From: an uncultured Actinomycetota bacterium
Lineage (GTDB): Bacteria; Actinomycetota; Actinomycetes; Actinomycetales; Demequinaceae
NCBI GenBank assembly: GCA_963743485.1
Contig: CAVUPQ010000004.1
Location: 279,292 to 343,291 of the forward strand
DNA: 64,000 bases
Reading direction: 5' to 3'
A model generated the notes under the pieces. The model saw nothing but the letters and a program-made list of their open reading frames with translations. It had not been told where the DNA came from and made no database searches. A program made the translations under genes and the position numbers. How positions within the stretch are numbered: the first letter of the stretch is position 1; every line of letters starts with the position of its first letter. Shown one piece after another: positions 30,260 through 59,750 of the stretch.

Positions 30260-31180
30260 TCACGCAGTCGTCGTGCGTGCCGTCCGTCGTACGAGGCGCG
30301 ACACCAAGCGCAAGGGAGCGGTGATACGCCAACTCGTCGAGGCCTGGATGGCGCGCTTCTCCTCGTCAAAGCTGGCTTCCAGCGCCCGTGCTGCGTCGGC
30401 CGCCTGCTGCAGCTGGAGGGGAGCAGAAAGCGCCAGTCCCAGCCGCGAATATGCGCTGCGAATCTGACCCGCGAGGGCGGGAACGCTCTCCGCCGCGCAC
30501 AGGTCCAGGACGACCTGGGGTGCCGAAGACCCAACGGCCACAACCCCAAGGCCATGCCCATGGTCGAACTCGAACATCGGATATGCCTCCCGCAGTTCCG
30601 CCATCAGGCGGTAGACCCCGAATCCGCGTTCGACAACCTTGGTGTCGTGGAAGAGGACCACCCCCCGCTCCGAGAGCTTGGGCAGCCACGTTTCGAAGTC
30701 GACCTTGACGTCCTCGTAGCCGTGTCTCCCATCGATGTGGAGGAGGTCGACCGTGCCGTCCTCGACTTCGCGACGCGCATCGTCGAACGTGGCACGAATG
30801 AGTCGCGAGAAACTCGAATAGTGCTCGTCATTGTGGGCACGAACCCGTTCGTACACCTCGTTGCCGTAGAGGCCCGCGTGATCATCGCCCATCCAGTGGT
30901 CGACCGCGTAGCACCGCGTCGGCAGTCCGCCCGACGTGACGGCTCGACAGAAGACGAAGTACGAGTAGCCGCCGTGAGTACCCAGCTCGACGATCGACGC
31001 CGGGCGCGTGTTCGCGACAAGCCACGACGCGAATGGTGCGTGTTCGATCCATGCAGATTCGACATCGACGTAGTCGGGCACCGCGAAACAACTCTCGTCG
31101 ATGTAGCGGGCGAGACTCTCCCCGGGAGGCGCATCCGCGGGTCCCTTGCGAGCCATTCTGCCTCCTCTGTCGTGCCCCAC
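30260..31180 (-). CDS. class I SAM-dependent methyltransferase (Methyltransf_24-like) with coiled-coil C-terminal tail
   Basis: Intact 306-aa ORF (an alternative start MARKG is 8 codons in). Contains IVELGTHGGYSYFVF and LLHIDGRHGYEDV. The C-terminal 70 aa or so are helical (LQLQQAADAARALEASFDEEKRAIQAS) and end with TSWRITAPLRLVSRLVRR. Confidence 0.75.
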   Translation of the reverse strand: MGHDRGGRMARKGPADAPPGESLARYIDESCFAVPDYVDVESAWIEHAPFASWLVANTRPASIVELGTHGGYSYFVFCRAVTSGGLPTRCYAVDHWMGDDHAGLYGNEVYERVRAHNDEHYSSFSRLIRATFDDARREVEDGTVDLLHIDGRHGYEDVKVDFETWLPKLSERGVVLFHDTKVVERGFGVYRLMAELREAYPMFEFDHGHGLGVVAVGSSAPQVVLDLCAAESVPALAGQIRSAYSRLGLALSAPLQLQQAADAARALEASFDEEKRAIQASTSWRITAPLRLVSRLVRRTARTTTA

Positions 31181-31276
31181 CGCAGTCTAGCCTCGGTTCC
31201 CCGGTGGCTTGCGGCGAATCCCGGACGTGGTGGGTGCGGTCGGTGCCGCCGCGCGCTCACCGAGTAACCTAGGCCC

Positions 31277-31858
31277 ATGCTCCTCAGCGACCACGACATC
31301 CGCGCCGCGATTGAATCCGGACGCGTCGTCCTGACGCCCTACGACCCCGGCATGATCCAGCCGTCGTCGATCGACGTCCGGCTCGACAAGTTCTTCCGCG
31401 TCTTCGACAACCACAAGTACGCCGCGATCGACCCTGCTGTGGAGCAGGAGGAGCTCACGCGGCTCGTCGAGGTCTCCGGGGACGACCCGTTCGTCCTCCA
31501 CCCTGGGGAGTTTGTCCTCGCGTCGTCGTACGAAACGGTATCTCTGCCCGACGACATCGCGGCTCGCCTCGAGGGCAAGTCCTCGCTGGGTCGGCTTGGG
31601 CTCATGACGCACTCGACTGCGGGGTTCATCGACCCAGGCTTCGAGGGAAACGTCACGCTTGAACTCTCGAACGTCGCGACCCTGCCGATCAACCTCTGGC
31701 CAGGGATGAAGATCGGACAGATGTGTTTCTTCCGGCTGTCGTCCGCAGCCGAGGAGCCCTACGGTTCGGGCAAGTACGGCTCGCGGTACCGGGGCCAGCG
31801 CGGCCCGACGGCGTCAAAGTCGTGGATGAACTTTCACCGGAGCGATCTCGGCTCTTAG
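31277..31858 (+). CDS. dcd: dCTP deaminase
   Basis: Intact 193-aa ORF: [24 protein letters not shown]...PSSIDVRLD...[21 protein letters not shown]. Confidence 0.93.
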
Positions 31859-33789
31859 GTCGACGATCCCTCCAGGGGCGCCGGACGATAGTCCACGGTG
31901 ATGTGCTGCTCGGGGCACGTCTCATTGAGCGAGGCCTGGAGCCACGGATCGCCCGTAACGATGTGCATGGGCTTCGCCGAGAGTTCGGCAACCAGGCACA
32001 CGTGAGCGTCCGTGGTCATGAGGGCCCCCATGATGAAGAGTTGCCCCTTGTCATGGTTCGGTCGCCCCTCGCCTGCGAGCTGGATGAGCCAGTTGTTCAC
32101 CACGTGCTCGTTCTTCTCGCCCGATCTCCAACGAATGTAGAGGCCGGCGTCGTGCGTGTTCGCCAAGATCTCGTCTGAGACCTGGTCGCCTTGGATGTAA
32201 TACGAGCCGTTCAGCATGAGCGGCAGCGGCACCGCAGAGAATCTCTCGAAACTATCCTGCGGTATCACCACCAGAGGTCCGAAGAGCAGGGTGATGGAGA
32301 ACACCATCCCCCCAAGCAGCCAACCCCGCGCCCGGCGCGACGGCACCGCCTTCGACCAGCGCGCGACGAGGCCGATGCCGACGACAATGAGCAGCGCGGC
32401 AACGAACCAGGCGTACTTGTGCGGGTAGTACGACCACACGCCGAAGAAATCGTTGTGCGCGTACCCGATGACCGCGCCCAGCCCCAGCGTTCCGACAACG
32501 GCCGTGGCAATGATGCCCCGCCGCTCAACGGAGCCCGGCGCCGGGTACGCCTTCCTCGCGAGCCAGACGACCGCAATGGCGAAGCTCGGAAGCATCCACT
32601 TGGGAAACCCCGCGAGGCCGCCGACCTGGCCGAGGCTCGACCGCGAAGTCAAGAACAGGGGCGCCTCGACCACTACCGAATACGCGATGAGTTGCGCGAG
32701 GCTCGCAAGCAGCATCACTCGCGACACCCCGCGGACGGCGCGAAGCCTTCCGCGGTAGCGCCACGCGACCACCGCCGCGAGAGTCAGCGGGAGGAAGATG
32801 AGCGGACTCCACACGGCGAGGATCAACGTACCCGCGACGGTCTGTGAGGCGAGGGCGAGCGCGGGACGACGCTCCGCGCCGAGTGCGGCCATCACCGACG
32901 CGAACAGAATCGGAAAGACGAGCTGCGCGTTGACGAAGCCGAATTCGATCGGATACCCGCTGAAGTACCACGTGACGGGCAGCGCCGATCCGCACAGCGC
33001 CGCGAGCGCCCCGGTCCCCCGCCAGCCCGACTTCGCCCTCCCCGCAACCATGGCCGCGAGCGCGCCTGAAAGCAGGCACGTGAGCGCGAGGAGCACGATC
33101 CACGTCGTGGCAAACGCATGGAGGTCCCGGTGCAGCAGAGTGGCGCGCGCGACCTCGTTGTCATACGGAGCCATCGCGACCGCGAACAGCGCGTGTCCCA
33201 ACGGCACCGGGTCGTCTGCCATGTCGCTGAGCCGAATTCCGCCCGCGTACACGATGCCGCGCGCATACATGAAGTGGGGTGCCGCGTCGTTGCGAAGCGC
33301 CCAGTCGATCGTCGTCGCCCCCGGCACGACGAAGCAGAGCGCGTACGTGACGAGCCACGCAATCGCGCCCGCTGCCGCGGCGAGCGCGACGCCAAACCGT
33401 GTGGCCAGGATGGTGGGCACAGCCGCGCGGGTTCGGTAGAAGGCGGTAACTCCCGCGGCGCCCGCCAGGGACCACAGGATCGTCGCCACGCCCTCGAAAC
33501 TGAGCGGCACGACGGGGGACAGAAACACGGTCGCCAGCACGACGAGGAAGGCGGCCAGCGTCGTGGTGCCAGCGGCGAGGGACGCGCCAAGTCGGGGCCA
33601 CAACGCGACGAACCACACCCCACACGCGACGCCAAAGAGCGGCCAGATCGGCCCGCCCGCGGCCGCGGCGATCGCGGCCCACCCCGCCGAGACGGCCATG
33701 CCGACGGTGATCGCGACCCGCGCGACGGCTAGCCTCCGCGACGAAAGAGCAACGCGCACCACAGCCCACCGCCGTTCACTCGGACTCAC
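31855..33789 (-). CDS. large polytopic membrane protein (644 aa), putative glycan polymerase or GT-C-type transferase
   Basis: Intact ORF with more than 12 predicted TM helices by eye and a C-terminal soluble domain of about 150 aa ([32 protein letters not shown]...). No family assigned. Located in the glycopolymer locus. Confidence 0.7.
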
Positions 33790-33822: not shown

Positions 33823-35517
33823 TTATGGCACCGCGCCGTGCGCGTCCATCCGATCCGGGCTCTCCTCGCCCAGCCGCACGAGGACATGCGCCGCAGCAAG
33901 AATCACGATCCCAGCGAGGAGCGTCGCGAGGCCCAACGGTCGCACGGGAGCCGGATCCCAGGGCGGGCTCAGGAAGTGGAACGCCATCCATCCCTGAAGC
34001 CCCACGACCGCCCATCCCGCCCACTCAACATGAAGCGCCATCCAGGAAAGAGGAACGGCGAGCAACAGGATGATCCAGACATGGCTTCCTTGGTGAACCA
34101 CAGTCGTGCCGGGCCCGAACATGATGAGGGCCCAGGCGGCGAGGGACGGGAGCGTCGCCGCGCAGATGAGCGCGAGTCGGCGATCCGTGTCACCGAGGCG
34201 CTGGCCTCGTAGCCGCGTCACGAGCGCATGAACGAGCATCGCGGCGAGGATGAGCACGGCGAGTCCGAGGGCGTTGGACGTGAAGATGAATTCCGCGCTA
34301 TTGCGCGACGCCCGTGACGCCGCCCCAGGGGGGAAGAGGCCGCGGAGGAGATTCGGGTCGAAGATCTCCTTGACATTCGCCCACTTGTTGGCGACCACCT
34401 CGCCGAAGCTGAGCGACGAGTACGCGCGGGCGAAGACGGTGGAGAACGACTCGTCTGTCACCGGGATGACCCCCGCGAGGTGCCACTTCAGGAGTCGATC
34501 GCCAGGGGGGTCGACGAGACGTTGGTACAAGAGCCAAGGGACGTAGAGCACGGCCAGTGCGACGGCCCCCCACGCCGCGTTCGTGGCGAGGGCCCGGATG
34601 CCGTGCTTTCGCAATCGCCACCAGGCGATTAACACAAGGATCGGAACGGCGAAAGCGGTGCCCCCGTGGGCGAGGAGGCCGAGCGTGCCCGCCGCCACCG
34701 CGGCTATGAATAGCCAGCGCGTCTTGGTGGCGGCGATGTCGACTGACAGAAGCAGCGCGATCGCGGCAAGGACCATAGCGGCGGCGAGGAGTTTTGGCCA
34801 CGTGAAGACCGCGTTGATCACCATGGTGGTCGTGAGGGCCGCGAACGTTATCGCCATGAAGGAGATGCGCGCGGGTACGCGGAGGGCCCGGAGGGCCGCG
34901 TGGGTGGCCGGGACCCAGAGCGCCTGGGCGACGACGCTCGCGGCCGCGGCGCCGGTCGCGGCCTCGCGCAGCACCACGGCAGGGCCGGCCAGAAGGAGGA
35001 TGAAGCCAGCTTGGAGCGGCGGCCGGTCGCTTCCGTTCCAGTCGCCCGCGAGCGGGTGCGTCGATTCGCCGAGTCCGATCTTTTCTGCCAGCTGCGCGGG
35101 GAGGGTGTTGTCCGACGGCAGGTGATCCGCCACGAATCGGATCTCCGAGAGTTTCCAGAAGCCAACGTCCGATTGCCAGAGGTAGAGGAGCCCCAAATGT
35201 ATGAAGATGATCGCCGCGGTCAGCAAGAACAGCGCCGTCGCTTCGCGCGGCACGCGCCACGCCCTCGTCTTCACGAAGTAGGCCGCCGTCGCGAGCCATC
35301 CCATGCCAATGGCGTAACGGCCGACACTCGGCGAGGCGAACGTGATCACGATGGTCACGTAGCTCGCCAGCGCGACCCCCACCACCGCGAGGGAAACGCT
35401 CGTGGCCAGGTTGCCTCGGTGGATGCGCCGGGTGGCACGTATCGCGACGCACATCATCATCCACGTTGCGAACGAAACGTAGGCGACTGTCGCGGCCGAC
35501 ACCAGCGCGTGAGGCAT
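33823..35517 (-). CDS. polytopic membrane protein (564 aa), GT-C-like; paralog of 39378..41093
   Basis: Intact ORF. It shares long collinear similarity with the 571-aa protein at 39378..41093 (GDWNGSDRPPLQAGF, VVAQA.W.PA, TWPK.L.AA.V.AA, LLAHG..AFA.P, DPPGDRL.KWHLAGVIP). Function inferred from topology and context only. Confidence 0.7.
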   Translation of the reverse strand: MPHALVSAATVAYVSFATWMMMCVAIRATRRIHRGNLATSVSLAVVGVALASYVTIVITFASPSVGRYAIGMGWLATAAYFVKTRAWRVPREATALFLLTAAIIFIHLGLLYLWQSDVGFWKLSEIRFVADHLPSDNTLPAQLAEKIGLGESTHPLAGDWNGSDRPPLQAGFILLLAGPAVVLREAATGAAAASVVAQALWVPATHAALRALRVPARISFMAITFAALTTTMVINAVFTWPKLLAAAMVLAAIALLLSVDIAATKTRWLFIAAVAAGTLGLLAHGGTAFAVPILVLIAWWRLRKHGIRALATNAAWGAVALAVLYVPWLLYQRLVDPPGDRLLKWHLAGVIPVTDESFSTVFARAYSSLSFGEVVANKWANVKEIFDPNLLRGLFPPGAASRASRNSAEFIFTSNALGLAVLILAAMLVHALVTRLRGQRLGDTDRRLALICAATLPSLAAWALIMFGPGTTVVHQGSHVWIILLLAVPLSWMALHVEWAGWAVVGLQGWMAFHFLSPPWDPAPVRPLGLATLLAGIVILAAAHVLVRLGEESPDRMDAHGAVP

Positions 35518-35651
35518 CCCGCTACCCTAGCGCCGGGGAGCGCCCTCTGACGCAAGCTTGGGCTGGTGGTATCGACGCCTCGAAGGTCCGGCCGGCCGCA
35601 GGGCCAGGGTCCGGACGCGAGCCACCAGGACTCAGACGCCCCGGCGCGGTC

Positions 35652-36167
35652 CTAGACCGCGCCCGAAGGATTCCGCTCGCGCATCGCGCCGGCTCCGGCC
35701 ACAACCTTGCCTGTCCGGTGGTCGCCGTACACCCACATCCGGTACATCACGAACCGGAACGACGTGGCGAGCGCGAGCCCCACGACGTTGGCCGCGACGT
35801 TATCCGCGAGCAGGCTGTCGAAGCCGAGAACCGAGTGTGAGAACCACAGGCAGAAAAGCGCGATTCCCATCCCGACAACCGCGATCGCGGTGAACTCAAG
35901 CAGCTCCAGGATGAAGTTGGTTCGGCGATGTTCTCGGAAGGTCCAGTAGCGATTCCCGAACCATGACACGAGCGTGGCGATCGCGACCGAGATGGTCTTC
36001 GCAGCGAACGAACTCGCCAGGATGGGGCCATCGCCGTGCAAGTCGAGGCGAAGCGCGTTGAAGATGCCCACGTCAACGCCGTAGGCGATGACGCCGACGA
36101 CGCCGAACTTCATGACGTAGCGCGTGACAAGGGCGTTGAATGAACGCCAGGAAGTGCGGACACTCAC
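35652..36167 (-). CDS. GtrA family protein (polyprenyl-phosphate-sugar translocation-associated)
   Basis: Intact 171-aa, 4-TM ORF: YVMKFGVVGVIAYGVDVGIFNAL...VSWFGNRYWTFRE...SFRFVMYRMWVY, the typical GtrA pattern. Confidence 0.85.
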   Translation of the reverse strand: MSVRTSWRSFNALVTRYVMKFGVVGVIAYGVDVGIFNALRLDLHGDGPILASSFAAKTISVAIATLVSWFGNRYWTFREHRRTNFILELLEFTAIAVVGMGIALFCLWFSHSVLGFDSLLADNVAANVVGLALATSFRFVMYRMWVYGDHRTGKVVAGAGAMRERNPSGAV

Positions 36168-36316: not shown

Positions 36317-37572
36317 GTGGCCGCGAGGTCGCCCCTAGCGAACAGGACCGGAACGGTGGCAGCAGACTTCCCGAACGACGTTGTGGTGATCGGCGGCGGC
36401 GGTCACGTCGGCCTTCCCTTGGCGATCGCGCTCGCGGATCGCGGCTCCAAGGTCGCGGTCTACGACATCAACGCGTCCACCGTCGAGACGGTGATGAAGG
36501 GCGTCGTGCCGTTCTCGGAGCCCGGAGCCGAGCCTGTCCTCAAGAAGGCCATCGCCGACGGCCGCTTCATCGCGACGACGGAACCCGCCGTCGTGGGAAC
36601 CGCGCAGCACGTCATCGTCGTCATCGGCACGCCCGTCGACGAGCACCTCAACCCCGACCCGAACGCCATCCCCGCTCGCCCTTGCCGCAACGAGCGAGCA
36701 CTTCCGCGATGGCCAGGACGTTGATTCTCCGCAGCACGGTCTACCCCGGCGTCACCGCCCTCGTCGAGCGCATGGTCGCCGAGCCTCGGCCTCGACATCG
36801 ACGTCGCGTTCTGCCCCGAGCGCATCGCCGAGCACAAGGCCATGGAGGAGCTGTTCTCGCTGCCCCAGATCGTCTCGTCCCGCAGCGCCCGCGGCCGCGA
36901 GCGCGCCGCGGCGCTGTTCTCGACCCTCACCGACGAGATCGTCCACCTCGAGCCCGAGGAGGCGGAGCTCGCCAAGCTCTTCACCAACACGTGGCGCTAC
37001 ATCAAGTTCGCGGCGGCCAACCAGTTCTACATGATGGCCAACGAGCGCGGGCTCGACTTCGAGCGCATTCGCGAGGGGCTGAGCCGCAACTACCCCCGCG
37101 CCAAGGACATCCCCGGAGCGGGCTTCGCCGCGGGGCCGTGCCTGTTCAAGGACACGATGCAGCTCGCCGCGTTCAGCGGACAACAAATTCGCGCTCGGCC
37201 ACTCGGCGATGCTCGTGAACGAGGGCCTGCCCCTGTACGTGGTGACGCAGCTCGAGAAGAGGTTCGACCTCGCGACAGCTGACCGTCGGCATCCTCGGCA
37301 TGGCGTTCAAGGGCGGCTCCGACGACATCCGGTTCGAGCCTGTCCTACAAGCTGCGCCGGGTGCTGAAGTTCAAGGCCAAGGCCGTCGTTGTGCACGGAC
37401 CCGCACGTCACCGAGGAGACCGACGACACGCTCATTCCCGCTCGAGGACGGTGCTCGCGAAGGCCGACATCCTGATCATCGCGACGCCGCACGCCGAGTA
37501 CCGCGGCCTCGCGATCGGACAAGCCCGTCGCCGACGTGTGGAACCTGCTCGGCAACGGGCGTGGTGGTGTGA
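36317..37572 (+). pseudogene. nucleotide-sugar dehydrogenase (UDP-glucose/GDP-mannose dehydrogenase family), multiple frameshifts
   Basis: N-terminus VVVIGGGGHVGLPLAIALADRGSKVAVYD lies in ORF 36317..36724. LILRSTVYPGVTALVERM lies in 36682 onward. CPERIAEHKAMEELFSLPQIV...AELAKLFTNTWRYIKFAAANQF...GAGFAAGPCLFKDT (catalytic Cys) lies in 36842..37282. GILGMAFKGGSDDIR lies in 37300 onward. The stop is at 37570-37572. At least 5 frame changes. Confidence 0.8.
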
Positions 37573-38351
37573 CGCTCGCTCAGCCCCCGCGTCACGCATC
37601 GTCATCCCCGCGTACAACGAGGGCGAGAACATCGTCGCCGGGCTCGACCGCATCGTCGACGGCCGTTGCGCCTCGAGCTTCGAGTTGCTCGTCGTCGTTG
37701 ACACCGCGGACGACACGACGATTCCGGTCGGTCGAGGCGTACTCCGACAAGCGAGCCTCAGGTGCGGATCGTGATCAGACGACTATGGTCGCGGACCGGC
37801 CAACGCGATTCGCTACGGCATCGACTCACGCTCGGCGCCGACGACGGTCGTCACGATGGCCGACGGCTGCGACGACCCGCAGCAGATCGACGAGCTCGCG
37901 CGCCTGGTCGAGCGGGGCGTCGTCGTGGCCGCCGCGTCGCGCTACATGGCGGGCGGCCAACAGGTCGGTGGGCCCGCGTTTCAAGCGCTTCCTGTCGCGC
38001 ACGGCGGGGCGGTCCCTCTACTGGTTCGCGGGCGTGGGCACGCGTGACGCGACCAACTCGTACAAGGCGTACCACACCGACTTCGTGCGCCGCGGTCGGG
38101 ATCGAGAGTCAGCGACGGCTTCGAGATCGGGCTCGAGCTCACGGCCAAGGCGCGGCAGCCACCGGCAGCCCGTCGCCGAGATCCCGACGATCTGGCTCGA
38201 CCGGGCGTTCGGCCAATCGAATTTCCAGATGTCCAAGTGGATACCGAAGTACCTTCGTTGGTACCTCTACGCCTACGGGGGCTCCAAGCCCCTGCCCGAG
38301 GCGCCGGCGTCCCCCGACATCACCAATGCGAAGGGAAACAACCATGGCTAA
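37569..38351 (+). pseudogene. GT2 polyprenyl-phosphate-sugar synthase (Dpm1/ArnC/GtrB-like), multiple frameshifts
   Basis: The GTG at 37569 overlaps the upstream stop (GTGA). RIVIPAYNEGENIVAGLDRIV and FELLVVVDTADDTT lie in the frame of 37361..37774. VVTMADGCDDPQQIDELARLVERGVVVAAASRYMAGG lies in 37856..38047. AEIPTIWLDRAFGQSNFQMSKWIPKYLRWYLYAY lies in the frame ending at 38351. Confidence 0.8.
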
Positions 38352-41093: not shown

Positions 41094-41216
41094 GGCCCCA
41101 CCCTAGCGGCGACCCGGTATGCTCACGGGCGGGGCGCTCGTGCGGGCACCCGCCTACGGCAGTTTCGCCGGTCTGCGGCTCGCGCCGTCGCGGCGGGGAG
41201 GGATGACGCGAGCTCC

Positions 41217-50819: not shown

Positions 50820-51190
50820 CGACGCGTCGCTCGCTTCGGCGGTGTCGCGGTGGGCTTGGGTGCGCGGGCGATCGCCTCGGCGCGGGCGATCAAGAGGATT
50901 TGCCGATGGACGTGCGCGCGTTCCCGCCGATCGGAGATGGCATAGAGGCCGAAACTCACCGCCAGCCCGTAGAGGAGTAGATCGGCGCCCCGACCGATCC
51001 CGACAGCATTGGCGACTCGATCGGAGAGCTCGGGCGAGATGATCGCCGCAACCGCGGCACACACGACGAGGAGCACTCCGAGGCGCCGAATGGCCATCCT
51101 TCGAGCTCCGCGTCCGGGCCACGCGATTCCGAGCGCGACGACCACGACCGCGAGCGAAAGGACGACCTTGATGACGAGTTGAGACTCCAT
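50816..51190 (-). CDS. DUF2304 domain-containing small membrane protein
   Basis: Intact 124-aa ORF with 3-4 TM helices and GIGRGADLLLYGLAVSF. It is the characteristic partner immediately downstream of a GT2 polyprenyl-phosphate-sugar synthase. Confidence 0.8.
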   Translation of the reverse strand: MESQLVIKVVLSLAVVVVALGIAWPGRGARRMAIRRLGVLLVVCAAVAAIISPELSDRVANAVGIGRGADLLLYGLAVSFGLYAISDRRERAHVHRQILLIARAEAIARAPKPTATPPKRATRR

Positions 51191-51196
51191 GGCGAC

Positions 51197-51868
51197 CTAC
51201 TTGAACACTAGTTCGGAGAGGATGTTGATCGAATTCCAGAGCGACTGGCCCTTGGAGCGCGAGTACTCGGTATAGAGGATCTGCACGGGATGCTCGGCGT
51301 AGCGCAGTCGCGAGGCGCCGATCTGGGCGACGAGCTCCGAGGCGTGAGCCATGCGGCTCTGGGTGATCTCCGTCTTATCGAGCGCCTCGCGGGTCAGGGC
51401 ACGCAGCCCGTTGTGGGCGTCCGTAAGGTGAACACCCGTCGTGAGGTTTCCAAAGACCGCGGCCACGCGGAGCACGAGCCGCTTGAGCCAGCCGATTTCG
51501 GTTCGACGGTCGAGGAATCGCGATCCCAAGACCACATCAAGGTCGCCTTCGCGCAAGCGGGCGACCATGGCCTCGGCGTCGGCGACTTGGTGCTGACCGT
51601 CGGAATCGAAGGTGACCACGTATCGCATCGCAGGGTCCTGGCGTACGTAGTCGAACCCCGTCTGTAGCGCCGCCCCTTGACCGAAGTTGATCGGGTGGCG
51701 GACGACGCGAGCTCCGGCATGTTCGGCGATGGCGGCGGAGTCGTCAGAACTCCCGTCGTCGATGCACGCGATGTTGGGGAAGACTCGGAGGGCGTCACGC
51801 ACCACCGCATCGATCACGGGCGCCTCGTTGTACAACGGAATGACGAGCCACGTGTCCAGGTTGTCCAC
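51197..51868 (-). CDS. GT2 polyprenyl-phosphate hexose/hexosamine synthase (PpgS/GtrB-like)
   Basis: Intact 223-aa ORF: LVIPLYNEAPVI, CIDDGSSDDS, TFDSDGQH. It has no TM tail and is followed by DUF2304 and galE, the same order as M. tuberculosis ppgS(Rv3631)-Rv3632...galE1 as I recall it. Confidence 0.8.
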   Translation of the reverse strand: MDNLDTWLVIPLYNEAPVIDAVVRDALRVFPNIACIDDGSSDDSAAIAEHAGARVVRHPINFGQGAALQTGFDYVRQDPAMRYVVTFDSDGQHQVADAEAMVARLREGDLDVVLGSRFLDRRTEIGWLKRLVLRVAAVFGNLTTGVHLTDAHNGLRALTREALDKTEITQSRMAHASELVAQIGASRLRYAEHPVQILYTEYSRSKGQSLWNSINILSELVFK

Positions 51869-52198: not shown

Positions 52199-53851
52199 GT
52201 GAACAGCACGAACCGCTCGCGGCGGAAGTCGCCCTCCGTCTCGACCTCCGCGCCGTCGGCGCTCGGCGACATCGCACGCCGGGGATACGGGCGTGCAGCG
52301 GGGCTCCTGACGACCAGAGTCGCCGTCATCGTGCACGTCGCGGTCCTCATCACGGGGACGGCATTTCAGGCAGGCTACATTCACAGGCTGTGGCTCTTCC
52401 GGGACGACTGGTCGTTCATTGACGCGGGCGCGGGGGACGCCTTCGCGCCGCATGTCGGCCACTGGAGCACGGTCCCCCGCCTCCTGTTCCTCGCGCTCCG
52501 AAACGTGTGGGGGATCGACAGCTTCCTCCCGTACGCGATCCCCATCGTGATCGCGCACGGGCTCGTGGTGCACCTGGTCTGGCGAGTCGGCATGCGCTCT
52601 CACGTGGCGCCGTGGATCATGACGGCGCTCTCTGCGCTACTCATGTTCCACGGCAAGGGGAGCGAGAACATCCTCTTTGCCTTCCAGATCGGTTTCGTCG
52701 GGGCGATGGTTCTGGGACTGGTCGCGCTCATGACCCTGGACTCCGACAGGCGAACCCCCGCCCGGTGGGTCCTCGCCGTCGGGCTGCTGACCGTGGCTCT
52801 GGCGTTTGCCGGCACGGCCATCCCCTTCGTGGTGGCCGCCGGCTTCGTGGGATGGCGGCAAGGAGGGTGGCGTCGCGCGGCGGGCCTTGTCGCCGTCCCC
52901 TCCGTCGTCTATGCCGCGTGGTACCTATCAATCGGCCGAGAGTGGCCGACCGCCAGCGGCACGGACGGTCTGGCACACCTCGCTACGGGCGTCCCTGAAT
53001 ATGCGAGCAACATGGTGTTGTTCGGAGTCGGCTCGTGGATGCCGTGGTGGAGTCTCGCGGCGGCGTTCACGGGAGTGCTGTTGGCGTGGGCGCTGGTCTC
53101 CGGAGTCTGGAAGGTCCCGGCAGGACTGCTCCCGACCACGCTCTTGGTGGCGATCGTGGTCTTCGCACTCTCGGCTGGATACTCGCGCCTCGAGCTCGGC
53201 GTCGAGACCGCCCTGAACTCGCGATACCTCTACTTCGTTGTCGCGCTCGCCGCCCCGCTCACCGGGCTCGGGCTCACCGCGCTTGCACGACGGTGGCGTC
53301 GGCTCGTGGGCCCCGTCGCGGGTGCGATATTCGTCGTCGCCGGGATCCAGGGCGTCGGCCTCGCCGCGGCCTTCGACGAACGAGCGGCGGCGACGGGCGA
53401 AACGCGAGAGGTGTTCTCGGCCACTCTCGACTACCTGCACCGATACCCCGATCACTTCGACGTGGCTCAGCGACCGTTCGGCCACGCCGCGCCCGACATG
53501 TCCATCGCATCGCTTGAGTGGATCGAAAACGAGGGTTGGTTCACGCGCGGGGAGTTCCGTCGACCGGTCGAGCTCTCGGCGCTGCTGGCCATGGACCTCT
53601 CCGCGACGACGGAGCCCGGCCCCGCCGTAGGCTGTGCGCCGTGGGACGGCCGCGAACGGCCGCTGGGGGTTCAGCCGTTCGCCGTCGACGTGCCCGAGTC
53701 CGGAAGCCTCGACTTCGTTCTGACCGACGGGAAGACCACCACGCCCGTCCGGACCGTCGACGTCGGCCCCGGCGTCGTCCGCTTCGACGAGCGGGTCGCG
53801 TTCGATCTTCACCTCGTGGGAGCGACAGGCGACGTTTCAATCTGTGCTTAG
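52199..53851 (+). CDS. polytopic membrane protein (550 aa), GT-C-like; paralog of 41217..42566 with extra C-terminal domain
   Basis: Intact ORF (GTG start; the exact start is uncertain). LFRDDWSF after TM1, then APHVGHWSTVP, WGIDSFLPYA and GKGSENILFAFQIGFVGA. The C-terminal 150 aa or so are soluble. Divergent from the PpgS-like module. Confidence 0.7.
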   Translation: MNSTNRSRRKSPSVSTSAPSALGDIARRGYGRAAGLLTTRVAVIVHVAVLITGTAFQAGYIHRLWLFRDDWSFIDAGAGDAFAPHVGHWSTVPRLLFLALRNVWGIDSFLPYAIPIVIAHGLVVHLVWRVGMRSHVAPWIMTALSALLMFHGKGSENILFAFQIGFVGAMVLGLVALMTLDSDRRTPARWVLAVGLLTVALAFAGTAIPFVVAAGFVGWRQGGWRRAAGLVAVPSVVYAAWYLSIGREWPTASGTDGLAHLATGVPEYASNMVLFGVGSWMPWWSLAAAFTGVLLAWALVSGVWKVPAGLLPTTLLVAIVVFALSAGYSRLELGVETALNSRYLYFVVALAAPLTGLGLTALARRWRRLVGPVAGAIFVVAGIQGVGLAAAFDERAAATGETREVFSATLDYLHRYPDHFDVAQRPFGHAAPDMSIASLEWIENEGWFTRGEFRRPVELSALLAMDLSATTEPGPAVGCAPWDGRERPLGVQPFAVDVPESGSLDFVLTDGKTTTPVRTVDVGPGVVRFDERVAFDLHLVGATGDVSICA

Positions 53852-54882: not shown

Positions 54883-56147
54883 CGGGCGCCAAACCAGAGG
54901 CGAGCGGCGCGCGGCGCCTGCTGGTCGCCACCGTCGTGTCGGGCGGATTGGGCTACCTCACGCTGGCGTTCGCCACACACCAGCTCTCGGCCGGGAGCTA
55001 CGCCGCCTTCGCAACGTTCTGGTCCGGGCTGTACCTTGTCGTCGGGAGCGTCAATGGCGTTCAGCAGGAGGTGTCTCGCTCCTCCACGTCCGCGCTCAGG
55101 ACCCCCGTCGAACGGGGGCCGCACACCGCGCTGCGACTCTTCCTCGCCGTCGCCGTCGCGCTCGCGGCTCTAGGCGTGATCGGGGCGCCGTGGGCACACG
55201 ACCTCTTCGGTTCCCACACGTCGGTGAAGATGGTGGTGCTCGTCGCCGGAGCCGTCGCATACTCGGCCCTCGCCGTGTCCGTCGGCCTCCTTTATGCGGC
55301 CGAGTCGTGGCGACTCGTCGCGTGGGCGATCATCGCCGACGGGGCGCTCCGCATCGCTCTCGTGGGCGCCGCCCTGGCCCTCGGCCTCTCGGACATCCTC
55401 GTCGCCCTGTGCGTGGTTGCGCCCTTCCTGATTGTCCATCTCGTCGTCCTTCAGCGACGGGGATGGACCCTGTGGGGCGAAGCCGTCTTCGACGCCCACG
55501 GTTCCCGACTCCTGCGCAACACCGCGAGCGCCGTCCTTGCCGGTGCGGGGATCGCAGCGCTCGTCAGCGGGCTCCCCCTCATACTGGCGTGGGGCATTCC
55601 CGAGGTGGACGACGCGGTCTTGGCGCCGATCATCGTCGCGATTACGCTCGTGCGCGCCCCCCTGGTGATTCCGACCCTCGCCCTCCAGGGCTTCCTCGTG
55701 GTTCGCTACGTGAACCTGGGACGACGGGCGAGCGCCGACGCGACGCGCACCATCGCGGTCGTCGCCGTCGCCGTCGCCCTCGCGACCGTAGGCGCCGCGA
55801 CCGTTGGCGCAGGCCTCGTCGCGTCGGTGTTCGGCGCGGACTATCAGATCGATGCCGGACTACTCGCGTGGATTGTCGCCAGCTCGGGCGCCGTCGCCAC
55901 GCTCACGATCACGGGTGCGCTCGCCCTCGCGCGATCACTCCACCGAACGTACTCCGCGGGCTGGCTCGTGGCGGCGGCTAGTACTGTCGTCCTTGTGATG
56001 ACCCGTGTCGAGTTCCACCACAGGGTCGTGCTCGCCCTCGCCGTGCCGCCGACGATCGGCGTCGCCGTTCACGTCGCTGGCCTGGTCGCGGCGCGTCGCG
56101 CCGAGGATCGGGCGGGGTTTGGTCGCCCGACGCGGGAGCGATCGTGA
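54879..56147 (+). CDS. polysaccharide biosynthesis/flippase-like polytopic protein (Wzx/MOP-superfamily-like by topology)
   Basis: The GTG at 54879 overlaps the upstream stop (GTGA) and is in frame in ORF 54711..56147. About 420 aa, hydrophobic throughout (12 or more TM by eye). Assignment rests on topology and context only. Confidence 0.6.
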   Translation: MTGAKPEASGARRLLVATVVSGGLGYLTLAFATHQLSAGSYAAFATFWSGLYLVVGSVNGVQQEVSRSSTSALRTPVERGPHTALRLFLAVAVALAALGVIGAPWAHDLFGSHTSVKMVVLVAGAVAYSALAVSVGLLYAAESWRLVAWAIIADGALRIALVGAALALGLSDILVALCVVAPFLIVHLVVLQRRGWTLWGEAVFDAHGSRLLRNTASAVLAGAGIAALVSGLPLILAWGIPEVDDAVLAPIIVAITLVRAPLVIPTLALQGFLVVRYVNLGRRASADATRTIAVVAVAVALATVGAATVGAGLVASVFGADYQIDAGLLAWIVASSGAVATLTITGALALARSLHRTYSAGWLVAAASTVVLVMTRVEFHHRVVLALAVPPTIGVAVHVAGLVAARRAEDRAGFGRPTRERS

Positions 56148-57058
56148 AGGTCCTCGTCACCGGAGCAGCAGGAATGCTGGGGGGCGCCATCGCGAGGCAC
56201 CTCGCGACCATTCACGGAGACGACGCCGTCGTGCGGCCCCGGGCCGCGGAGCTGGACCTGCGCGACGGGGAGCGCGTGCGTGCCTTCGTCGACGACAACC
56301 CGGTCGACGCCGTGGTCCACGCCGCGGCGAAGGTGGGGGGCATTCAAGACCGGATCGACCACCCCACGTCCTACCTCCTCGAGAATCTTCAGATCGACAC
56401 GAGCCTGCTGGCAGCATGTGTCGACGCGGGAATCCCGAACGTCTTGTACATCAGCTCTGCAGCGATCTACCCTGCCGCGGCGAGCCAGCCCATTGGCGAG
56501 TCGGCCCTCCTCACCGGGACGCTCGAGGGGCCCCTTGAGTCGTACGCCATCGCGAAGATCGCCGGGACGCGCTTCTGCCAATACGCCTCGGAAGAGTTTG
56601 GCCTCAACTATCGCGTCGCCGTGCCGTCGAACATGTACGGCCCCGGCGAACACCTCGAGCCCGGCCGATCCCACCTCGCCGCCTCGGCGCTCCTCAAGTG
56701 CCACGCTGCGAAGACCGCCGGCGAAACGTCCGTCGAGGTGTGGGGCGACGGAACCGCACGCAGGGAGCTGACGTACGTCGATGACGTTTCCGCCTGGCTC
56801 GCGAGCCAGCTCACCAACCTCGACGGGTGGCCGGCGCTGGTGAATGTCGGCAGGGGCTCGGACAACACGGTGAGGGAGATCTACGAGCAGGCGGCGATCA
56901 CGACGGGGTTCGACGGGGACCTCGTCTTCGACGCGACGAAGCCCGTTGGCGTCGCCCAACGCCTCCTCGACTCGGCCCGGGCACAGTCCCTGGGGTGGAG
57001 TCCGACGACCGACCTGGCTGATGGCATGGCGCGCGCCTACGCGGCCATGTACCCCTGA
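56144..57058 (+). CDS. fcl: GDP-L-fucose synthase (GDP-4-keto-6-deoxy-D-mannose 3,5-epimerase/4-reductase)
   Basis: Intact 304-aa ORF collinear with Fcl/WcaG as I recall it: VLVTGAAGMLGGAI, AAAKVGGI, SSAAIYP, LESYAIAKIAG, VPSNMYGP, VWGDGTARRELTYVDD, DATKPVGVAQRLLD. gmd lies nearby. Confidence 0.8.
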   Translation: MKVLVTGAAGMLGGAIARHLATIHGDDAVVRPRAAELDLRDGERVRAFVDDNPVDAVVHAAAKVGGIQDRIDHPTSYLLENLQIDTSLLAACVDAGIPNVLYISSAAIYPAAASQPIGESALLTGTLEGPLESYAIAKIAGTRFCQYASEEFGLNYRVAVPSNMYGPGEHLEPGRSHLAASALLKCHAAKTAGETSVEVWGDGTARRELTYVDDVSAWLASQLTNLDGWPALVNVGRGSDNTVREIYEQAAITTGFDGDLVFDATKPVGVAQRLLDSARAQSLGWSPTTDLADGMARAYAAMYP

Positions 57059-57115: not shown

Positions 57116-58213
57116 CTAGGCGAGGCCCCTCGCCTTGTCGAAGACGGCAAGCGTCTCGCGGGCGGTCCTCTCCCAGGTGAAGAGCTTGGTCTGCACGAGG
57201 CCCTTGGCTGACAGGGACGCGAGCCACTCGGGCTCGGCCATCGCCCGCTCGAGAGTCGCGGCGATCGAGGCCGGATCCTTGGGGTCGAAGTACCCAGCGG
57301 CGTCGCCCGCGATCTCGCGGAACTCCGAGATGTCAGACATCAGGACCGGCAACCCCAGGTACATGGCCTCAAGCGCGGGAAGGCTCGTGCCGTCGTGGAG
57401 CCCGGGAATTACGAGCGCCGTCGCGTGTTCCAGAAGCCACGCAACCTCGTCGTCCGGAACCCACGACCGGAGGTCTACCCACTCCTGAAGCCCAAGGTCG
57501 GCGATGATCGGCGCGAGCGGATCGGGTCCGCGCGCTCCCGTGATCACGACCTTCGGGCGCCGACTCTCATCGATATGGACGAGCGAGCGCACGAGCCCGG
57601 CCCAGTTCTTGTGTCCGATCCTCTGACCCATGGCGAGGAAGAGCGCCTGCTCCCGGTCCTTCGTCGCGACGCGACGCGCCGTCGGCGGCGTCCCCGCAAG
57701 GCTGACGACGTCAATGCGTTCAGCGGGAAACTTGAGGTACGTCACGATGTCCTCGAGCGACGCCTGACTGTCCGTGATGATCCGCGCGGCGTTGCGAGAC
57801 GCGACCTTCTCCATCCACTGGACGGGCTTGTTGTACATCGGCGTGACCATCAACTCCGGCAGAGCGAAATAGAGGAGGTCGTGCATCGTGTACACCGCCG
57901 GCATCGCGGTCTTGCGGGGCCCGAGCGTGAGCGGGCAGTGAAGCAGATCCGCGCCAACCCTCGCCGCGGCGGGGCCGGCGCGGAAGAGTTCTCCCCACGC
58001 CCAGATGAAGCGATTCTCACCCGTGATTCCGCTGTTGATGACCTCGCCCGGGAACCACGGCGCTCCCATGGCGGCAAGCTCCTTGCTCGCCCACGCGACG
58101 AAGGTGTGACCCGTGTCAAGGGCGCCGATCGAGGCGTAGAGCTCGCGGACATACTTCTCCATGCCGCCTTTGAGTCCCGTGTAGGAAAGCAGATCAACGA
58201 AGATCTTTGCCAA
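57116..58213 (-). CDS. glycosyltransferase family 4 (GT-B)
   Basis: The TTG at 58213 is preceded by GGAGGAG and lies inside ORF 57116..58573: LAKIFVDLLSYTGLKGGMEKYVRELY. C-terminal GT-B motif: IPGLHDGTSLPALEAMYLGLPVLMSDISEFREIAGDAA. Confidence 0.8.
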   Translation of the reverse strand: MAKIFVDLLSYTGLKGGMEKYVRELYASIGALDTGHTFVAWASKELAAMGAPWFPGEVINSGITGENRFIWAWGELFRAGPAAARVGADLLHCPLTLGPRKTAMPAVYTMHDLLYFALPELMVTPMYNKPVQWMEKVASRNAARIITDSQASLEDIVTYLKFPAERIDVVSLAGTPPTARRVATKDREQALFLAMGQRIGHKNWAGLVRSLVHIDESRRPKVVITGARGPDPLAPIIADLGLQEWVDLRSWVPDDEVAWLLEHATALVIPGLHDGTSLPALEAMYLGLPVLMSDISEFREIAGDAAGYFDPKDPASIAATLERAMAEPEWLASLSAKGLVQTKLFTWERTARETLAVFDKARGLA

Positions 58214-58724
58214 GGGGTGCTCCTCCGTGCGTCGGCCAAGCAACGGTTGTCTGCGGTCCTCGGCGGTGGCGGGCGCGTGCTCTCGAATTCTGGACCATGC
58301 TACCGTCCGCGCGAGGGGCCGACCGCTCCCTGGGGAGTCCGCGGCGCCGGCCCGCAACGTCGCCGAACCCTTGGGGCACGGGCACGTCACTGCCCGGGCG
58401 TCTCCTCCACGATGCGCAGAAGCTCGCGGAGACCCGGGGACCTCGACGGGGCGAAAGCCGGCGGGCAGGTAGGGAGCCGCGTCGATCGTCGGGTTGCATG
58501 TCGCGACGAACGCGTAGTCGCTTGCTTGGTTCTCCGTCCAGAAGTCCGCCGGTCCTGCGTCCCTGAACATCACCCCGGCCCGGTCGATCCCTTGGTCCGA
58601 CTCCCCGGACCCCGCGACCCACGGGCGGCTGGGAGGATGCGGCGCCCGCCGCTCGCCGTGAGCCTCGTGCTCTCCCGCTAGAGTGGCGCAGTACGATTTT
58701 TCGGCGAGTCTCGGAGGCGTTCAG

Positions 58725-59750
58725 ATGTCCACGAAAGACGGCAAACGGGCCCTGATCACCGGCATCACCGGCCAGGATGGAAGTTACCTCGCGGAGCTGC
58801 TCTTGTCGAAGGGCTACGAGGTTCACGGATTCATTCGCCGCGCGTCGACCTTCAACACGTCCCGCATCGACCACATCTACCAAGTGCCGCACACCGCGCA
58901 TCAGCGCCTCTTCCTGCACTACGCCGATCTCGCCGAAGGCTCGCGCCTCGCGCCGCTTCTACGGGAGGTCAACCCGCACGAGGTGTACAACCTCGCGGCG
59001 CAGTCTCACGTGCGCGTGAGCTTCGACGAGCCCGAATACACCGGCGATGTCACGGGCCTCGGGACAACGAGGTTGCTCGAGGCCATCCGCAACACCGAGC
59101 TGGACTGCCGGTTCTACCAGGCGTCGAGCTCGGAGATGTTCGGCGCCACACCCCCACCGCAGAATGAGGAGACGCCCCTCCACCCGCGCTCGCCGTACGG
59201 GGTCGCGAAGGTCTACTCGTACTGGATCACACGAAACTACCGCGAGGCCTACGACCTGTTTGCGGTGAACGGGATCCTCTTCAATCACGAGTCGCCCCGT
59301 CGCGGCGGAACCTTCGTCACGCGCAAGATCACGCGCGCCGTCGCGCGCATCGCCGCCGGCGAGCAGAAGGACCTGTGGCTTGGCAACCTCGACGCGGTGA
59401 GGGACTGGGGATACGCCCCGGAGTACGTCGAGGCGATGTGGCGCATGCTCCAGCACGACGCGCCCGAGGACTATGTCGTCGCAACCGGCACGGCATACAC
59501 GGTCAAGGATTTCGTGCGATTCGCGTTCGAGCGCGTGGGTCTCGACTGGGAGAAGCACGTCAAGTTCGACGAGCGCTACTTGCGGCCCTCGGAGGTCGAT
59601 GCCCTGATCGGCGACGCCTCGAAGGCCGAACGCGTCCTCGGCTGGAAGGCCAAGGTCCACACACCGCGCCTCGCGGAGATCATGGTCGATGCGGACATCG
59701 CCGAACTCGAGGTCGCGGGCAAGCCGTACGTCGATACCGTCGAGCAGTAG
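58725..59750 (+). CDS. gmd: GDP-mannose 4,6-dehydratase
   Basis: ATG at 58725 with GGAGG at 58713-58717, inside ORF 58683..59750. [42 protein letters not shown]. Intact. Confidence 0.93.

Follow-up and report, generated by a model that had tools for sequence, protein, structure and literature searches.

What kind of glycopolymer, and how many of them, could be made by a bacterial locus that carries parts of several membrane translocation systems side by side? We asked this of approximately 29 kb (positions 30,260 to 59,750) within a stretch of 64,000 nucleotides, hereafter the window, of contig CAVUPQ010000004.1 from an uncultured bacterium of the Demequinaceae (Actinomycetota). A preliminary description had listed four classes of machinery in this interval: an ATP-binding cassette (ABC) transporter-dependent set, a flippase with GDP-fucose synthesis, two modules that make polyprenyl-phosphate-linked sugar donors, and five large polytopic proteins proposed as GT-C glycosyltransferases (GTs) or polymerases. 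All four were recovered there. We consider it about 70% probable that the locus is a mosaic biosynthesis cluster for a peptidoglycan-associated cell-wall polysaccharide of this high-GC actinobacterium. Microbacteriaceae, among them Cryobacterium and Leifsonia, are the nearest relatives. Sequence, structure prediction and synteny support a backbone that is assembled in the cytoplasm, leaves it through the ABC transporter and is decorated outside the cell from polyprenyl-phosphate-linked sugars, with a 6-deoxyhexose among its components. This design had already been proposed from the letters alone, and it is now backed by structure models, a conserved core and recurring modules.

The open reading frame (ORF) lists of the window were swamped by spurious frames at a guanine plus cytosine (GC) content of ~69%. 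Genes were called from the GC bias at third and second codon positions (GC3 and GC2), followed by a check against Pfam and NCBIfam (Table 1). The start and the end of the locus both fall on gene ends. Its flanks are unrelated to it: upstream lie a GH94 gene and genes for the biogenesis of menaquinone and cytochrome c, and downstream a solute-binding protein.

Export core and extracytoplasmic transferase candidates

The best PDB sequence match of the permease Wzm was Aquifex Wzm (6m96, E 1.5e-18), and next in rank came TarG (E 2e-9) and a mycobacterial O-antigen-type permease (E 5e-6). Its gene overlaps wzt by 4 nt within one operon, and Wzt is 70-78% identical to its counterparts in Cryobacterium, Leifsonia and Plantibacter loci. 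Wzt consists of the nucleotide-binding domain only, and the C-terminal carbohydrate-binding domain of the terminator-dependent subtype is not present. With a related permease and its cognate ATPase encoded in one operon, the pair is predicted to be an exporter of the O-antigen/teichoic-acid type.

Next to the exporter genes lie those of an 841-aa GT2-GT4 enzyme, which is a candidate backbone polymerase, and of a tandem GT2 protein of 521 aa. The latter is truly tandem, as its N-terminal and C-terminal halves aligned in hhalign with 98% probability (E 1e-13). In its N-terminal domain (residues 1-245), 'VSRGGG' and 'SAGD' replace the VDD and DHDD acidic motifs of relatives, and this domain may be catalytically dead in this organism. 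These results (Pfam, PDB matches and hhalign) bear out the ABC-dependent set as first described. A further GT2 gene between Wzm and GalE (GT2_324) had been missed; its homologues, 45-51% identical, occur in Leifsonia, Gryllotalpicola and loci with relatives of protein A (see below).

To place the core, the 841-aa enzyme was compared with one genome per GTDB species, which gave 131 relatives confirmed by tblastn, and 80 loci were kept (numbered here with the prefix L). Identities ranged from 47 to 74%, with 63-65% in Cryobacterium and Leifsonia. The loci belong to Microbacteriaceae (Plantibacter, Curtobacterium, Gryllotalpicola and Herbiconiux as well), Pseudonocardiales, Acidimicrobiia and others. 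In the tblastn matrix the core of GT2-GT4 enzyme, Wzt and Wzm was present in 66 of the 80 loci (Wzt nearby in 66, Wzm in 65). Homologues of the tandem GT2 follow the core in 13 loci, and all genes outside the three-gene core are sporadic and variable. Two of the loci (L084:4363-6666 and L045:2557-4860) carry separate GT4-only (residues 372-770) and GT2-only (residues 9-263) genes upstream of the full-length fusion, which points to a history of duplication and of fission or fusion for the polymerase.

The five polytopic proteins are not all unrelated to one another. Blastp resolved them into three families: A alone, B1 with B2, and C1 with C2. That they belong to no named family was confirmed, since no Pfam or NCBIfam model matched any of the five above threshold; at permissive thresholds, and with the polytopic protein F included, these models returned sub-threshold noise only, namely DUF6541 with B2 and DUF6057 with a small number of family C proteins. 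Nor did profiles of A, B, C or F find a meaningful match among PDB sequences, and the GT-C relationship of B and C was seen by fold comparison only. Specifically, the AlphaFold2 model of B1 (predicted local distance difference test, pLDDT, 90; predicted TM-score, pTM, 0.93) had GT-C enzymes as 9 of its 11 top Foldseek matches in the PDB (ALG12, Pmt4, ArnT, ALG9, ALG3, EmbB, PimE) at probabilities of 0.97-1.0 and TM-scores of 0.3-0.5. Efflux pumps were interleaved among them at probabilities of 0.16-0.21 and TM-scores of ~0.12. The top matches of the C2 model (pLDDT 91.7, pTM 0.91) were ArnT (5f15, E 4e-4, TM-score 0.45), Pmt4, AftA, AftB, AglB, STT3, DPY19 and AftD, and its C-terminal beta-sandwich domain spans residues 469-549. 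Taking both models together, the leading matches were GT-C enzymes with probabilities of 0.97-1.0, and matches outside GT-C had probabilities of at most 0.41 and TM-scores of ~0.1. Families B and C are remotely homologous to each other (hhalign 91%, E 1e-6).

From these models for B1 and C2, and by paralogy for B2 and C1, the four are predicted to be GT-C-fold transferases. The alternative that B and C are transporters was rejected on the low probabilities and TM-scores (~0.1) of the transporter matches. The outcome named beforehand as a refutation, transporters or unrelated families, did not arise for these four. The proposal of five GT-C proteins thus holds up for four, and for A no match was found. 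Their number had also been called unusually high, which is mildly supported. Within 10 kb on either side of the GT2-GT4 gene the window has four polytopic proteins, compared with a mode of three in 55 comparable loci and at least four in 4 of the 55, as counted with a rough gene caller that finds three in the window and misses B2. The number is high, not exceptional.

Family B comprised 431 homologues in a word-indexed search, mostly from Microbacteriaceae and metagenomes, a few of which are labelled in UniRef as protein mannosyltransferase (PMT)-like or 'RgtA/B/C/D-like'. Its invariant positions are D136, D164-R-P-P, W-P-K and H284 (D136 and D164 in 36 homologues). In B1 both aspartates lie in a loop (residues 113-166) that follows the helix 91-112, and the loop before this helix is rich in lysine and arginine. 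B2 reached 22.3 bits against DUF6541 (PF20176; gathering threshold 29), B1 had no match, and a few distant B homologues carry PF20176. By sequence, family B appears to be a branch related to DUF6541 but unmodelled; a literature search on DUF6541 found nothing relevant. Family B may use a polyprenyl-phosphate-linked sugar donor; in its context, genes for a GtrA protein and a Dpm1-like GT2 adjoin B1 here and in L001 and L003. The same string, CGCTAGGGT, stands a few bases before the ATG of both B1 and B2 (35518-35535 and 41094-41111, minus strand), and the upstream regions outside it do not align. It is probably a ribosome-binding region kept since the B1/B2 duplication.

Family C had only 16 matches in the word-indexed search. 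A full hidden Markov model scan of 1.84 billion representatives showed it to be very large, with at least 6,347 clusters (50% identity) at E<=1e-3, of which 2,468 reached E<=1e-30, and no Pfam model exists for it. C1 and C2 share the motifs WFFxDEW, PHxGHWS, AFQIGF and SRYxY. The aspartate of the first of these (D69), directly after the first transmembrane (TM) helix, is invariant in 59 sequences, and the N-terminus is rich in lysine and arginine. By the positive-inside rule, the conserved acidic residues of both families (D136 and D164 in B, D69 in C) would face outward.

Protein A had four homologues in the word search and was found in 22 loci in a metagenome scan. Its invariant residues are W154, D159, R168, D213, Y446-P447-x-K449, C589 and C616. 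D159, R168 and D213 fall within a conserved loop of ~60 residues, which is probably external, and the two cysteines within the C-terminal domain, which is predicted to lie outside the membrane. These features and its gene neighbourhood make A a candidate for an extracytoplasmic transferase or ligase that would act together with F. In the family alignment of F, twelve segments are hydrophobic, and both the termini and the loops at 56-88, 192-220, 271-288 and 346-361 are K/R-rich, consistent with an N-in/C-in topology of ~12 TM helices as in Wzx and PST (polysaccharide transporter) flippases. One of eight F homologues (29-34% identical) matched PF01943 Polysacc_synt (E 2e-6), and an internal 6+6 TM repeat was looked for in F and none was detectable. 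Topology, context and this one transitive Pfam match make F a candidate divergent Wzx/PST-type flippase of the multidrug/oligosaccharidyl-lipid/polysaccharide (MOP) superfamily.

Table 1. Features called in the locus, with positions in the window and the basis of each call
Feature	Position	Strand	Basis
Methyltransf_24 methyltransferase, 306 aa	30260..31180	-	Pfam PF13578, 97.8 bits
dcd (dCTP deaminase)	31277..31858	+	Pfam DCD, 162.8 bits
A, called 635-644 aa, ~10-12 TM helices and ~130-aa C-terminal domain	31855..33789	-	no Pfam, NCBIfam or PDB match; candidate role by synteny
B1, 564 aa, GT-C-fold candidate	33823..35517	-	AlphaFold2 and Foldseek
GtrA-family small membrane protein	35652..36167	-	Pfam GtrA_DPMS_TM, 80.9 bits (threshold 26.1)
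Nucleotide-sugar dehydrogenase (Ugd/WecC-like), frameshifted	36356..37560	+	three Pfam UDPG_MGDP_dh domains in three different frames
Dpm1/GtrB-like GT2, ~243 aa, frameshifted	37586..38279	+	tblastn against intact L001 gene
Extended-SDR (short-chain dehydrogenase/reductase) epimerase/decarboxylase, ~343 aa, frameshifted	38344..39381	+	in-frame segments up to 92% identical to L001
B2, 571 aa, B1 paralogue, GT-C candidate	39378..41093	-	blastp against B1, 40% identity, E 7e-80
C1, 449 aa, C2 paralogue without C-terminal beta domain, GT-C candidate	41217..42566	+	blastp, 36%, E 3e-68; ATG start checked
Bifunctional GT2 (N-terminal) and GT4 (C-terminal) glycosyltransferase, 841 aa	42581..45106	-	Pfam
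Tandem GT2, 521 aa	45184..46749	-	Pfam GT2 at residues 256-435
Doubtful 108-aa ORF, coiled-coil-like sequence	46749..47075	-	GC3 0.77, weak coding signal
Wzt, ABC ATPase, 247 aa	47098..47841	-	Pfam ABC_tran, 77.5 bits
Wzm, ABC-2 permease, 278 aa	47838..48674	-	Pfam ABC2_membrane, 46.8 bits
GT2 glycosyltransferase (GT2_324), 324 aa	48808..49782	+	Pfam PF00535, 83.5 bits
GalE, UDP-hexose (or UDP-N-acetylhexosamine) 4-epimerase	49845..50819	-	TIGR01179, 337 bits (cut-off 262)
DUF2304 small membrane protein (GacJ/WpsB/Rv3632 type)	50816..51190	-	Pfam PF10066, 50.7 bits (threshold 25.5)
PpgS/GacI/WpsA-like GT2	51197..51868	-	NF058614 PpgS best match
C2, 550 aa, GT-C-fold candidate with C-terminal beta-sandwich (carbohydrate-binding-module-like) domain	52199..53851	+	AlphaFold2 and Foldseek
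GT2 (GT2_317), 317 aa	53929..54882	+	Pfam
F, ~422 aa, ~12 TM helices	54879..56147	+	hydrophobic segments in family alignment
Fcl-family GDP-4-keto-6-deoxymannose epimerase/reductase	56144..57058	+	NCBIfam GDPFucSynFcl best match
GT4, start uncertain	57116..58213	-	Pfam Glycos_transf_1 and Glyco_transf_4
Gmd, GDP-mannose 4,6-dehydratase	58725..59750	+	TIGR01472, 499.9 bits (cut-off 415)

Donor modules, frameshift patches and a proposed pathway

The PpgS-like GT2 matched NF058614 over its full length at 281.9 bits (E 3e-84). As the equivalog model has a cut-off of 370, the protein is by sequence a close relative of PpgS, not an equivalog. It carries as 'FDSDGQH' the DxDxQ motif described for polyprenyl-phosphate glycosyl synthases (PMC10821137), and is a candidate polyprenyl-phosphate N-acetylhexosamine (HexNAc) synthase. 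The adjoining DUF2304 gene overlaps the next gene in the same operon. Homologues of GT2_317 (37-50% identical) occupy the same neighbourhood, next to a PpgS-like GT2 and F, in L010, L043, L098, L104 and L108; the first of these, from Plantibacter flavus VKM Ac-2504, has the core as well. In L091-L096 and L107, homologues of the GT4 neighbour A and gmd. The Fcl-like protein scored 274.6 bits against GDPFucSynFcl (cut-off 500), with GalE as the next model at 81 bits, and is a probable GDP-L-fucose synthase. The set described earlier as a flippase with GDP-fucose synthesis is thus confirmed in its GT2, GT4 and Gmd, the last by TIGR01472; its Fcl-like member stays below the cut-off and its flippase is a candidate. 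That description had also kept this set apart from the second donor module (PpgS-like GT2, DUF2304 and GalE). Because the PpgS-like GT2, GT2_317, F, A, the GT4, gmd and fcl travel together in related loci, the two are probably one pathway of the GacIJKL/WpsAB type.

The other donor module consists of a nucleotide-sugar dehydrogenase, a 243-aa GT2 and an SDR protein, next to the GtrA protein, which is a candidate flippase for polyprenyl-phosphate-linked sugars and also adjoins B1 in L001-L003. Its genes were compared by tblastn and MAFFT with intact orthologues on two metagenome contigs, L001 and L003, both with the B1-GtrA neighbourhood. The intact 401-aa dehydrogenase of L001 passes TIGR03026 (272 bits, cut-off 189.8). 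For the L001 orthologue of the GT2 the best NCBIfam models, all below cut-off, were dolichyl-phosphate-hexose transferase, AglJ, PpgS and ArnC; with its hydrophobic C-terminal tail, this Dpm1/GtrB-like protein is a candidate polyprenyl-phosphate glycosyl synthase. PDB sequence matches of the SDR orthologue include UDP-glucose 4-epimerases and a decarboxylase of UDP-glucuronic acid (UDP-GlcA), and also 6zl6 and MoeE5, which we take to be UDP-GlcA 4-epimerases. In the window, these three genes are broken by ~26 insertions, nearly all of one base, and 3 deletions over 3 kb (36670-39313). The two donor modules described before are thus present in gene content, without intact ORFs in this one.

The same pattern was found in a second patch over the GH94 gene (27607-30046), with 20 insertions and 2 deletions. 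Insertions in both patches are spaced ~110-120 bp apart and the patch edges are sharp, whereas B1, GtrA and dcd show no single-base indels against L001 and L003 (in-frame indels only in B1 and dcd). The frameshifts in the donor module are most likely an assembly error, as in unpolished long-read or gap-fill sequence, and we take the three genes to function in the bacterium. This is favoured over decay because the +1 insertions run in one direction and are confined to patches, whereas decay gives insertions, deletions and substitutions. Upstream of the locus several ORFs span no more than a part of their Pfam domain or fuse unrelated domains (8201-8911, 11217-11921, 19235-19534, 20372-22078, 22947-23891 and 27048-27467). 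They include fragments of AMP-binding, amine-oxidase and DUF4349 domains, the N-terminal half only of a GT4, a 99-aa C-terminal piece of TrkH and a fusion of CMAS with an SDR, and suggest more frameshift patches elsewhere in the assembly.

We propose the following scheme, in which donor sugars, enzyme partners, acceptor and order of steps are inferred. On a polyprenyl carrier in the cytoplasm, the 841-aa GT2-GT4 enzyme would polymerise the backbone, with help from the tandem GT2 and probably GT2_324, and Wzm/Wzt would export it. Two pathways would then decorate it. In a four-component pathway (GacIJKL or WpsAB-G-J type), GalE would supply a UDP-HexNAc or UDP-hexose epimer, from which the PpgS-like GT2 and its DUF2304 partner would make HexNAc-P-polyprenol. 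GT2_317 and the GT4 may extend this with a GDP-6-deoxyhexose, probably GDP-L-fucose, from Gmd and the Fcl-like enzyme. F would flip the lipid-linked unit, and A (by synteny), possibly with C2, would transfer it onto the exported backbone. In a three-component pathway, the dehydrogenase and the SDR epimerase/decarboxylase would provide a UDP-uronic acid or a derivative sugar, which the 243-aa GT2 would load onto polyprenyl phosphate and GtrA would flip. B1, B2 and C1 (perhaps also C2) would add this sugar at different acceptor positions. Finally, methylation or capping of the chain may fall to the Methyltransf_24 enzyme.

One product or several

The accessory genes recur as modules in different combinations. 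The dehydrogenase/GT2/epimerase module stands with B1 and GtrA in L001 and L003. In L084 and L045 it lies next to the core together with a pair of C paralogues, and in L101 an A-like gene accompanies it. A directly adjoins F in L043, L089, L094, L102 and L104; it clusters with GT2_317, the PpgS-like GT2, the GT4, gmd and fcl in L043, L092, L095, L098, L107 and L108. This A-F module lies beside the GT2-GT4 gene or Wzm/Wzt in L043, L104 and L106. In the window it is split, with A at 31.9 kb and the remainder at 51-59.7 kb, and its presence at both ends speaks for a joint function of the full 29 kb. Close relatives have a hypervariable slot between dcd and the B1 orthologue: it holds A here and in L085 and L087, a PMT_2-like protein of 519 aa in L001 (11710-13269), and an epimerase and a GT in L003 (11893-14150). 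The modules are independently mobile, and the locus is a mosaic, not one conserved operon. The single contiguous locus of the preliminary description thus stands as a conserved core (66 of 80 loci) to which mobile accessory modules are added, though these do recur beside the core or each other.

This mobility allows a different reading, in which neighbouring genes serve two or more products: an ABC-exported wall polysaccharide, a Wzx-dependent fucose glycan, and GT-C enzymes that act on lipoglycans or, like PMTs, on secreted proteins. L001 and L003 have the B1/GtrA/donor module without the Wzm/Wzt core within 10 kb, for which reason the acceptor of this module could be another glycoconjugate. 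The A/F/gmd module occurs in L086 and L109 with Bac_transf and Wzy_C proteins and without an ABC transporter, the locus switches strand at least nine times, which suggests many transcription units, and some B homologues are named PMTs. Against this, accessory modules stand directly beside the GT2GT4/Wzm/Wzt core in L043, L084, L045, L104, L106 and L010, the divided A-F module ties the two ends of the locus together, and characterised systems built of the same parts yield one composite polymer (PMC10821137). We regard separate products as unlikely. It is very improbable, in our view, that the locus is partly decayed, with the donor genes and the nearby GH94 gene as true pseudogenes and GtrA, B1, B2 and C1 left without a donor. 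The frame-breaking insertions in the two patches and the truncated look of several upstream genes would fit decay. The regular spacing and single direction of the changes would not, and nor would in-frame segments with up to 92% protein identity, a GC3 that is still high, and adjoining genes that show in-frame indels only.

Rather doubtful, as we see it, is the possibility that A is not a glycosyltransferase and works instead as a polymerase or co-polymerase, as a component of export or a scaffold, or as a transferase of acyl or other substituents, which would leave four extracytoplasmic transferases and not five. A shows no similarity to B, C, Wzy_C, Pfam or NCBIfam models or PDB sequences. 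Specifically, 15 of 15 family members had no Pfam match, and hhalign of A against B, C and neighbouring Wzy_C proteins was not significant (best 9.9% probability, A 'EFGF' against C 'FQIGF'). Distant A homologues (27-29% identical) lie beside one or two Wzy_C proteins at L086:3202-5822 and L109:1126-2451, the former with a Bac_transf phosphoglycosyl transferase as well; A-type proteins are thus also found in Wzy-type loci with no ABC transporter nearby. Yet in several loci (e.g., L043, L098, L108) A is the sole member of the window's polytopic families, besides F itself, that tblastn detected near F. Its predicted external loop, the Y-P-x-K motif and the two-cysteine C-terminal domain make up a layout typical of transferases that use lipid-phosphate sugars.

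Several further points weigh against a single decorated wall polysaccharide, in addition to the lack of matches for A and the free-standing B1 module. No initiating phosphoglycosyl transferase of the WecA type and no LCP ligase were found within the window. The window's F protein matched no flippase model in Pfam (to E 10) or NCBIfam (to E 0.1) and nothing in the PDB. The Foldseek matches of the B1 and C2 models have TM-scores of only 0.4-0.5 and E-values of ~1e-3 to 1e-4. The Fcl-like enzyme is below its equivalog cut-off, and the 6-deoxyhexose need not be fucose. Moreover, the frameshifts in the donor-module genes, if real, would leave the three-component pathway dead.

The mosaic wall-polysaccharide cluster, which remains our preferred reading, also fits the composition of the locus. 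Its GC content is 67.3%, compared with 71.3% in the upstream and 74.6% in the downstream flank, which is consistent with horizontally exchanged glycan genes. A minimum of ~63% was observed around Wzm (47-49 kb). Among the remaining genes, dcd is a housekeeping gene outside the pathway and serves as a conserved anchor; it is 92-93% identical in L001, L003 and L087, with other glycan genes around it. The Methyltransf_24 protein is a candidate glycan O-methyltransferase or chain modifier, and a homologue 46% identical to it adjoins the Wzm/Wzt core in Leifsonia sp. TF02-11 (L006). Its C-terminal ~60 residues form a long helical, coiled-coil-like tail that recalls the WbdD-type chain terminators of ABC-dependent O-antigen systems. 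The order of the core genes in relatives is Wzm-Wzt-GT2GT4-GT2x2, compared with Wzm-Wzt-(108-aa ORF)-GT2x2-GT2GT4 here. The 108-aa ORF matched no family, has no counterpart among the related loci and could be the scar of a rearrangement.

Significance and comparison with known systems

Microbacteriaceae include plant pathogens and abundant taxa of soil and cold environments. Our literature search on the genetics of their wall glycopolymers found nothing relevant, and the subject is apparently essentially uncharacterised. The locus adds a parts list, which comprises the ABC-dependent core that recurs across Actinomycetota, the GT-C families B and C, both missed by current libraries of hidden Markov models, and the recurrent A-F pair. 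Assigning B, C and A-F would improve the annotation of thousands of 'hypothetical membrane proteins', and could account for variation in side chains that bears on phage and host recognition. We put forward tentatively, with the odds against it, that A and F form a recurrent flippase-transferase/ligase pair of Actinomycetota for polyprenyl-monophosphate-linked oligosaccharides that contain 6-deoxyhexose, that A is a new family or possibly fold class, and that C is a new GT-C CAZy family. If so, A would found a new family of extracytoplasmic glycosyltransferases and C a new GT-C family in CAZy. The value of the locus lies in annotation and enzyme discovery and not in a new concept, and its main interest in the unnamed families B and C and the A-F pair.

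The closest precedent for the whole design is the rhamnose-rich cell wall polysaccharide (Rha-CWPS, rhamnan plus PSP) of lactococci. There, an ABC-exported rhamnan is combined with WpsA/WpsB (homologues of GacI/GacJ) that prime on undecaprenyl phosphate (C55-P), cytoplasmic elongation, the Wzx-type WpsG, the GT-C protein WpsJ and separate three-component glucosylation systems (PMC10821137). As proposed for our locus, it has an ABC-dependent backbone, a GT2 and DUF2304-type pair that primes a polyprenyl-monophosphate-linked unit which cytoplasmic GTs can extend, and additional three-component decoration systems, and it gives the three transport routes a close precedent in the wall polysaccharide of one organism. 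The lactococcal system is from a different phylum, and neither rml genes nor rhamnan GTs were found in our locus. Its backbone polymerase is instead the GT2-GT4 fusion conserved across Actinomycetota, its B, C and A proteins have no detectable sequence similarity to named families, no polymerisation proteins of the WpsH/WpsI type were recognised, and GDP-6-deoxyhexose synthesis is present. A minimal version of the side-chain pathway is GacIJKL of the Streptococcus pyogenes group A carbohydrate, likewise encoded beside an ABC-exported backbone (PMC10821137). The counterparts would be the PpgS-like GT2 for GacI, DUF2304 for GacJ, F for the Wzx-type GacK and a large polytopic transferase for GacL. 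With its additional cytoplasmic GTs and gmd/fcl, our locus points to an oligosaccharide where the streptococcal side chain is a single N-acetylglucosamine (GlcNAc). The transferase partner (A and/or C2) cannot be recognised as a homologue of GacL, and of all NCBIfam models the closest to the GT2 is mycobacterial PpgS (282 bits).

Among actinobacteria, the analogue is the mycobacterial arabinogalactan region, which encodes about six GT-C enzymes in addition to a GtrA-like protein. Elsewhere in that genome, the genes for PpgS, a DUF2304 protein and GalE1 lie next to one another. The arabinogalactan region spans rv3779-rv3809c (PMC7168186), with Rv3783/Rv3781 as WzmWzt (PMC13649706). As proposed for our locus, Wzm/Wzt exports a polymer made in the cytoplasm by a bifunctional polymerase, and one region brings together several GT-C enzymes, lipid-phosphate sugar donors and a GtrA-like protein. 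The neighbouring arrangement of PpgS, DUF2304 and GalE is also that of the galactosamine modification by PpgS (Rv3631), Rv3632 and Rv3779. On the other hand, homologues of Glf/GlfT, a UbiA-type synthase of decaprenylphosphoryl-5-phosphoribose (DPPR), DprE1/E2, Emb and Aft were not found by sequence in the locus, where donors would come from nucleotide sugars via GT2 synthases and where a Wzx-type candidate and GDP-6-deoxyhexose genes are present.

The three-component periplasmic glycosylation systems, of the Gtr type or the GT136 pentofuranose type (PMC11127046), likewise join a lipid-P-sugar synthase, a flippase and a GT-C enzyme, with auxiliary epimerases that diversify the donor. GT136 ORF12 of C. 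youngae has the catalytic residues D31/E34, H106 and R349/Y350 and a C-terminal carbohydrate-binding module (CBM) (PMC11127046). C2 can be likened to it by architecture only, with a small domain after TM1 that holds an essential-looking aspartate, and a C-terminal beta-rich, CBM-like domain; an R-Y pair (R342-Y343) lies near residue 345 of C2. Here there is no phosphoribosyl-pyrophosphate-dependent UbiA-type synthase, and the flippase candidate of the donor module is GtrA, as opposed to a MATE-family flippase. The Arn and Rhizobium Rgt pathways, which modify lipid A and core with 4-amino-4-deoxy-L-arabinose (L-Ara4N) and galacturonic acid (GalA), respectively, offer a further parallel. They share an Ugd-type dehydrogenase, an SDR acting on a UDP-uronic acid, a GT2 that loads polyprenyl phosphate, a small-protein flippase and an ArnT/RgtA-like GT-C enzyme, and the likeness extends to the 'RgtA/B/C/D-like' label of one B homologue and to ArnT as one of the top structural matches. 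Our locus differs in its Gram-positive wall-polymer context, in having no aminotransferase, formyltransferase or deformylase, and in an acceptor that is not lipid A. As we read these comparisons, the overall design is already known from lactococci, streptococci and mycobacteria. Its direct precedents (PMC10821137, PMC11127046, PMC7168186, PMC13649706) make the locus less unusual than the preliminary description suggested.

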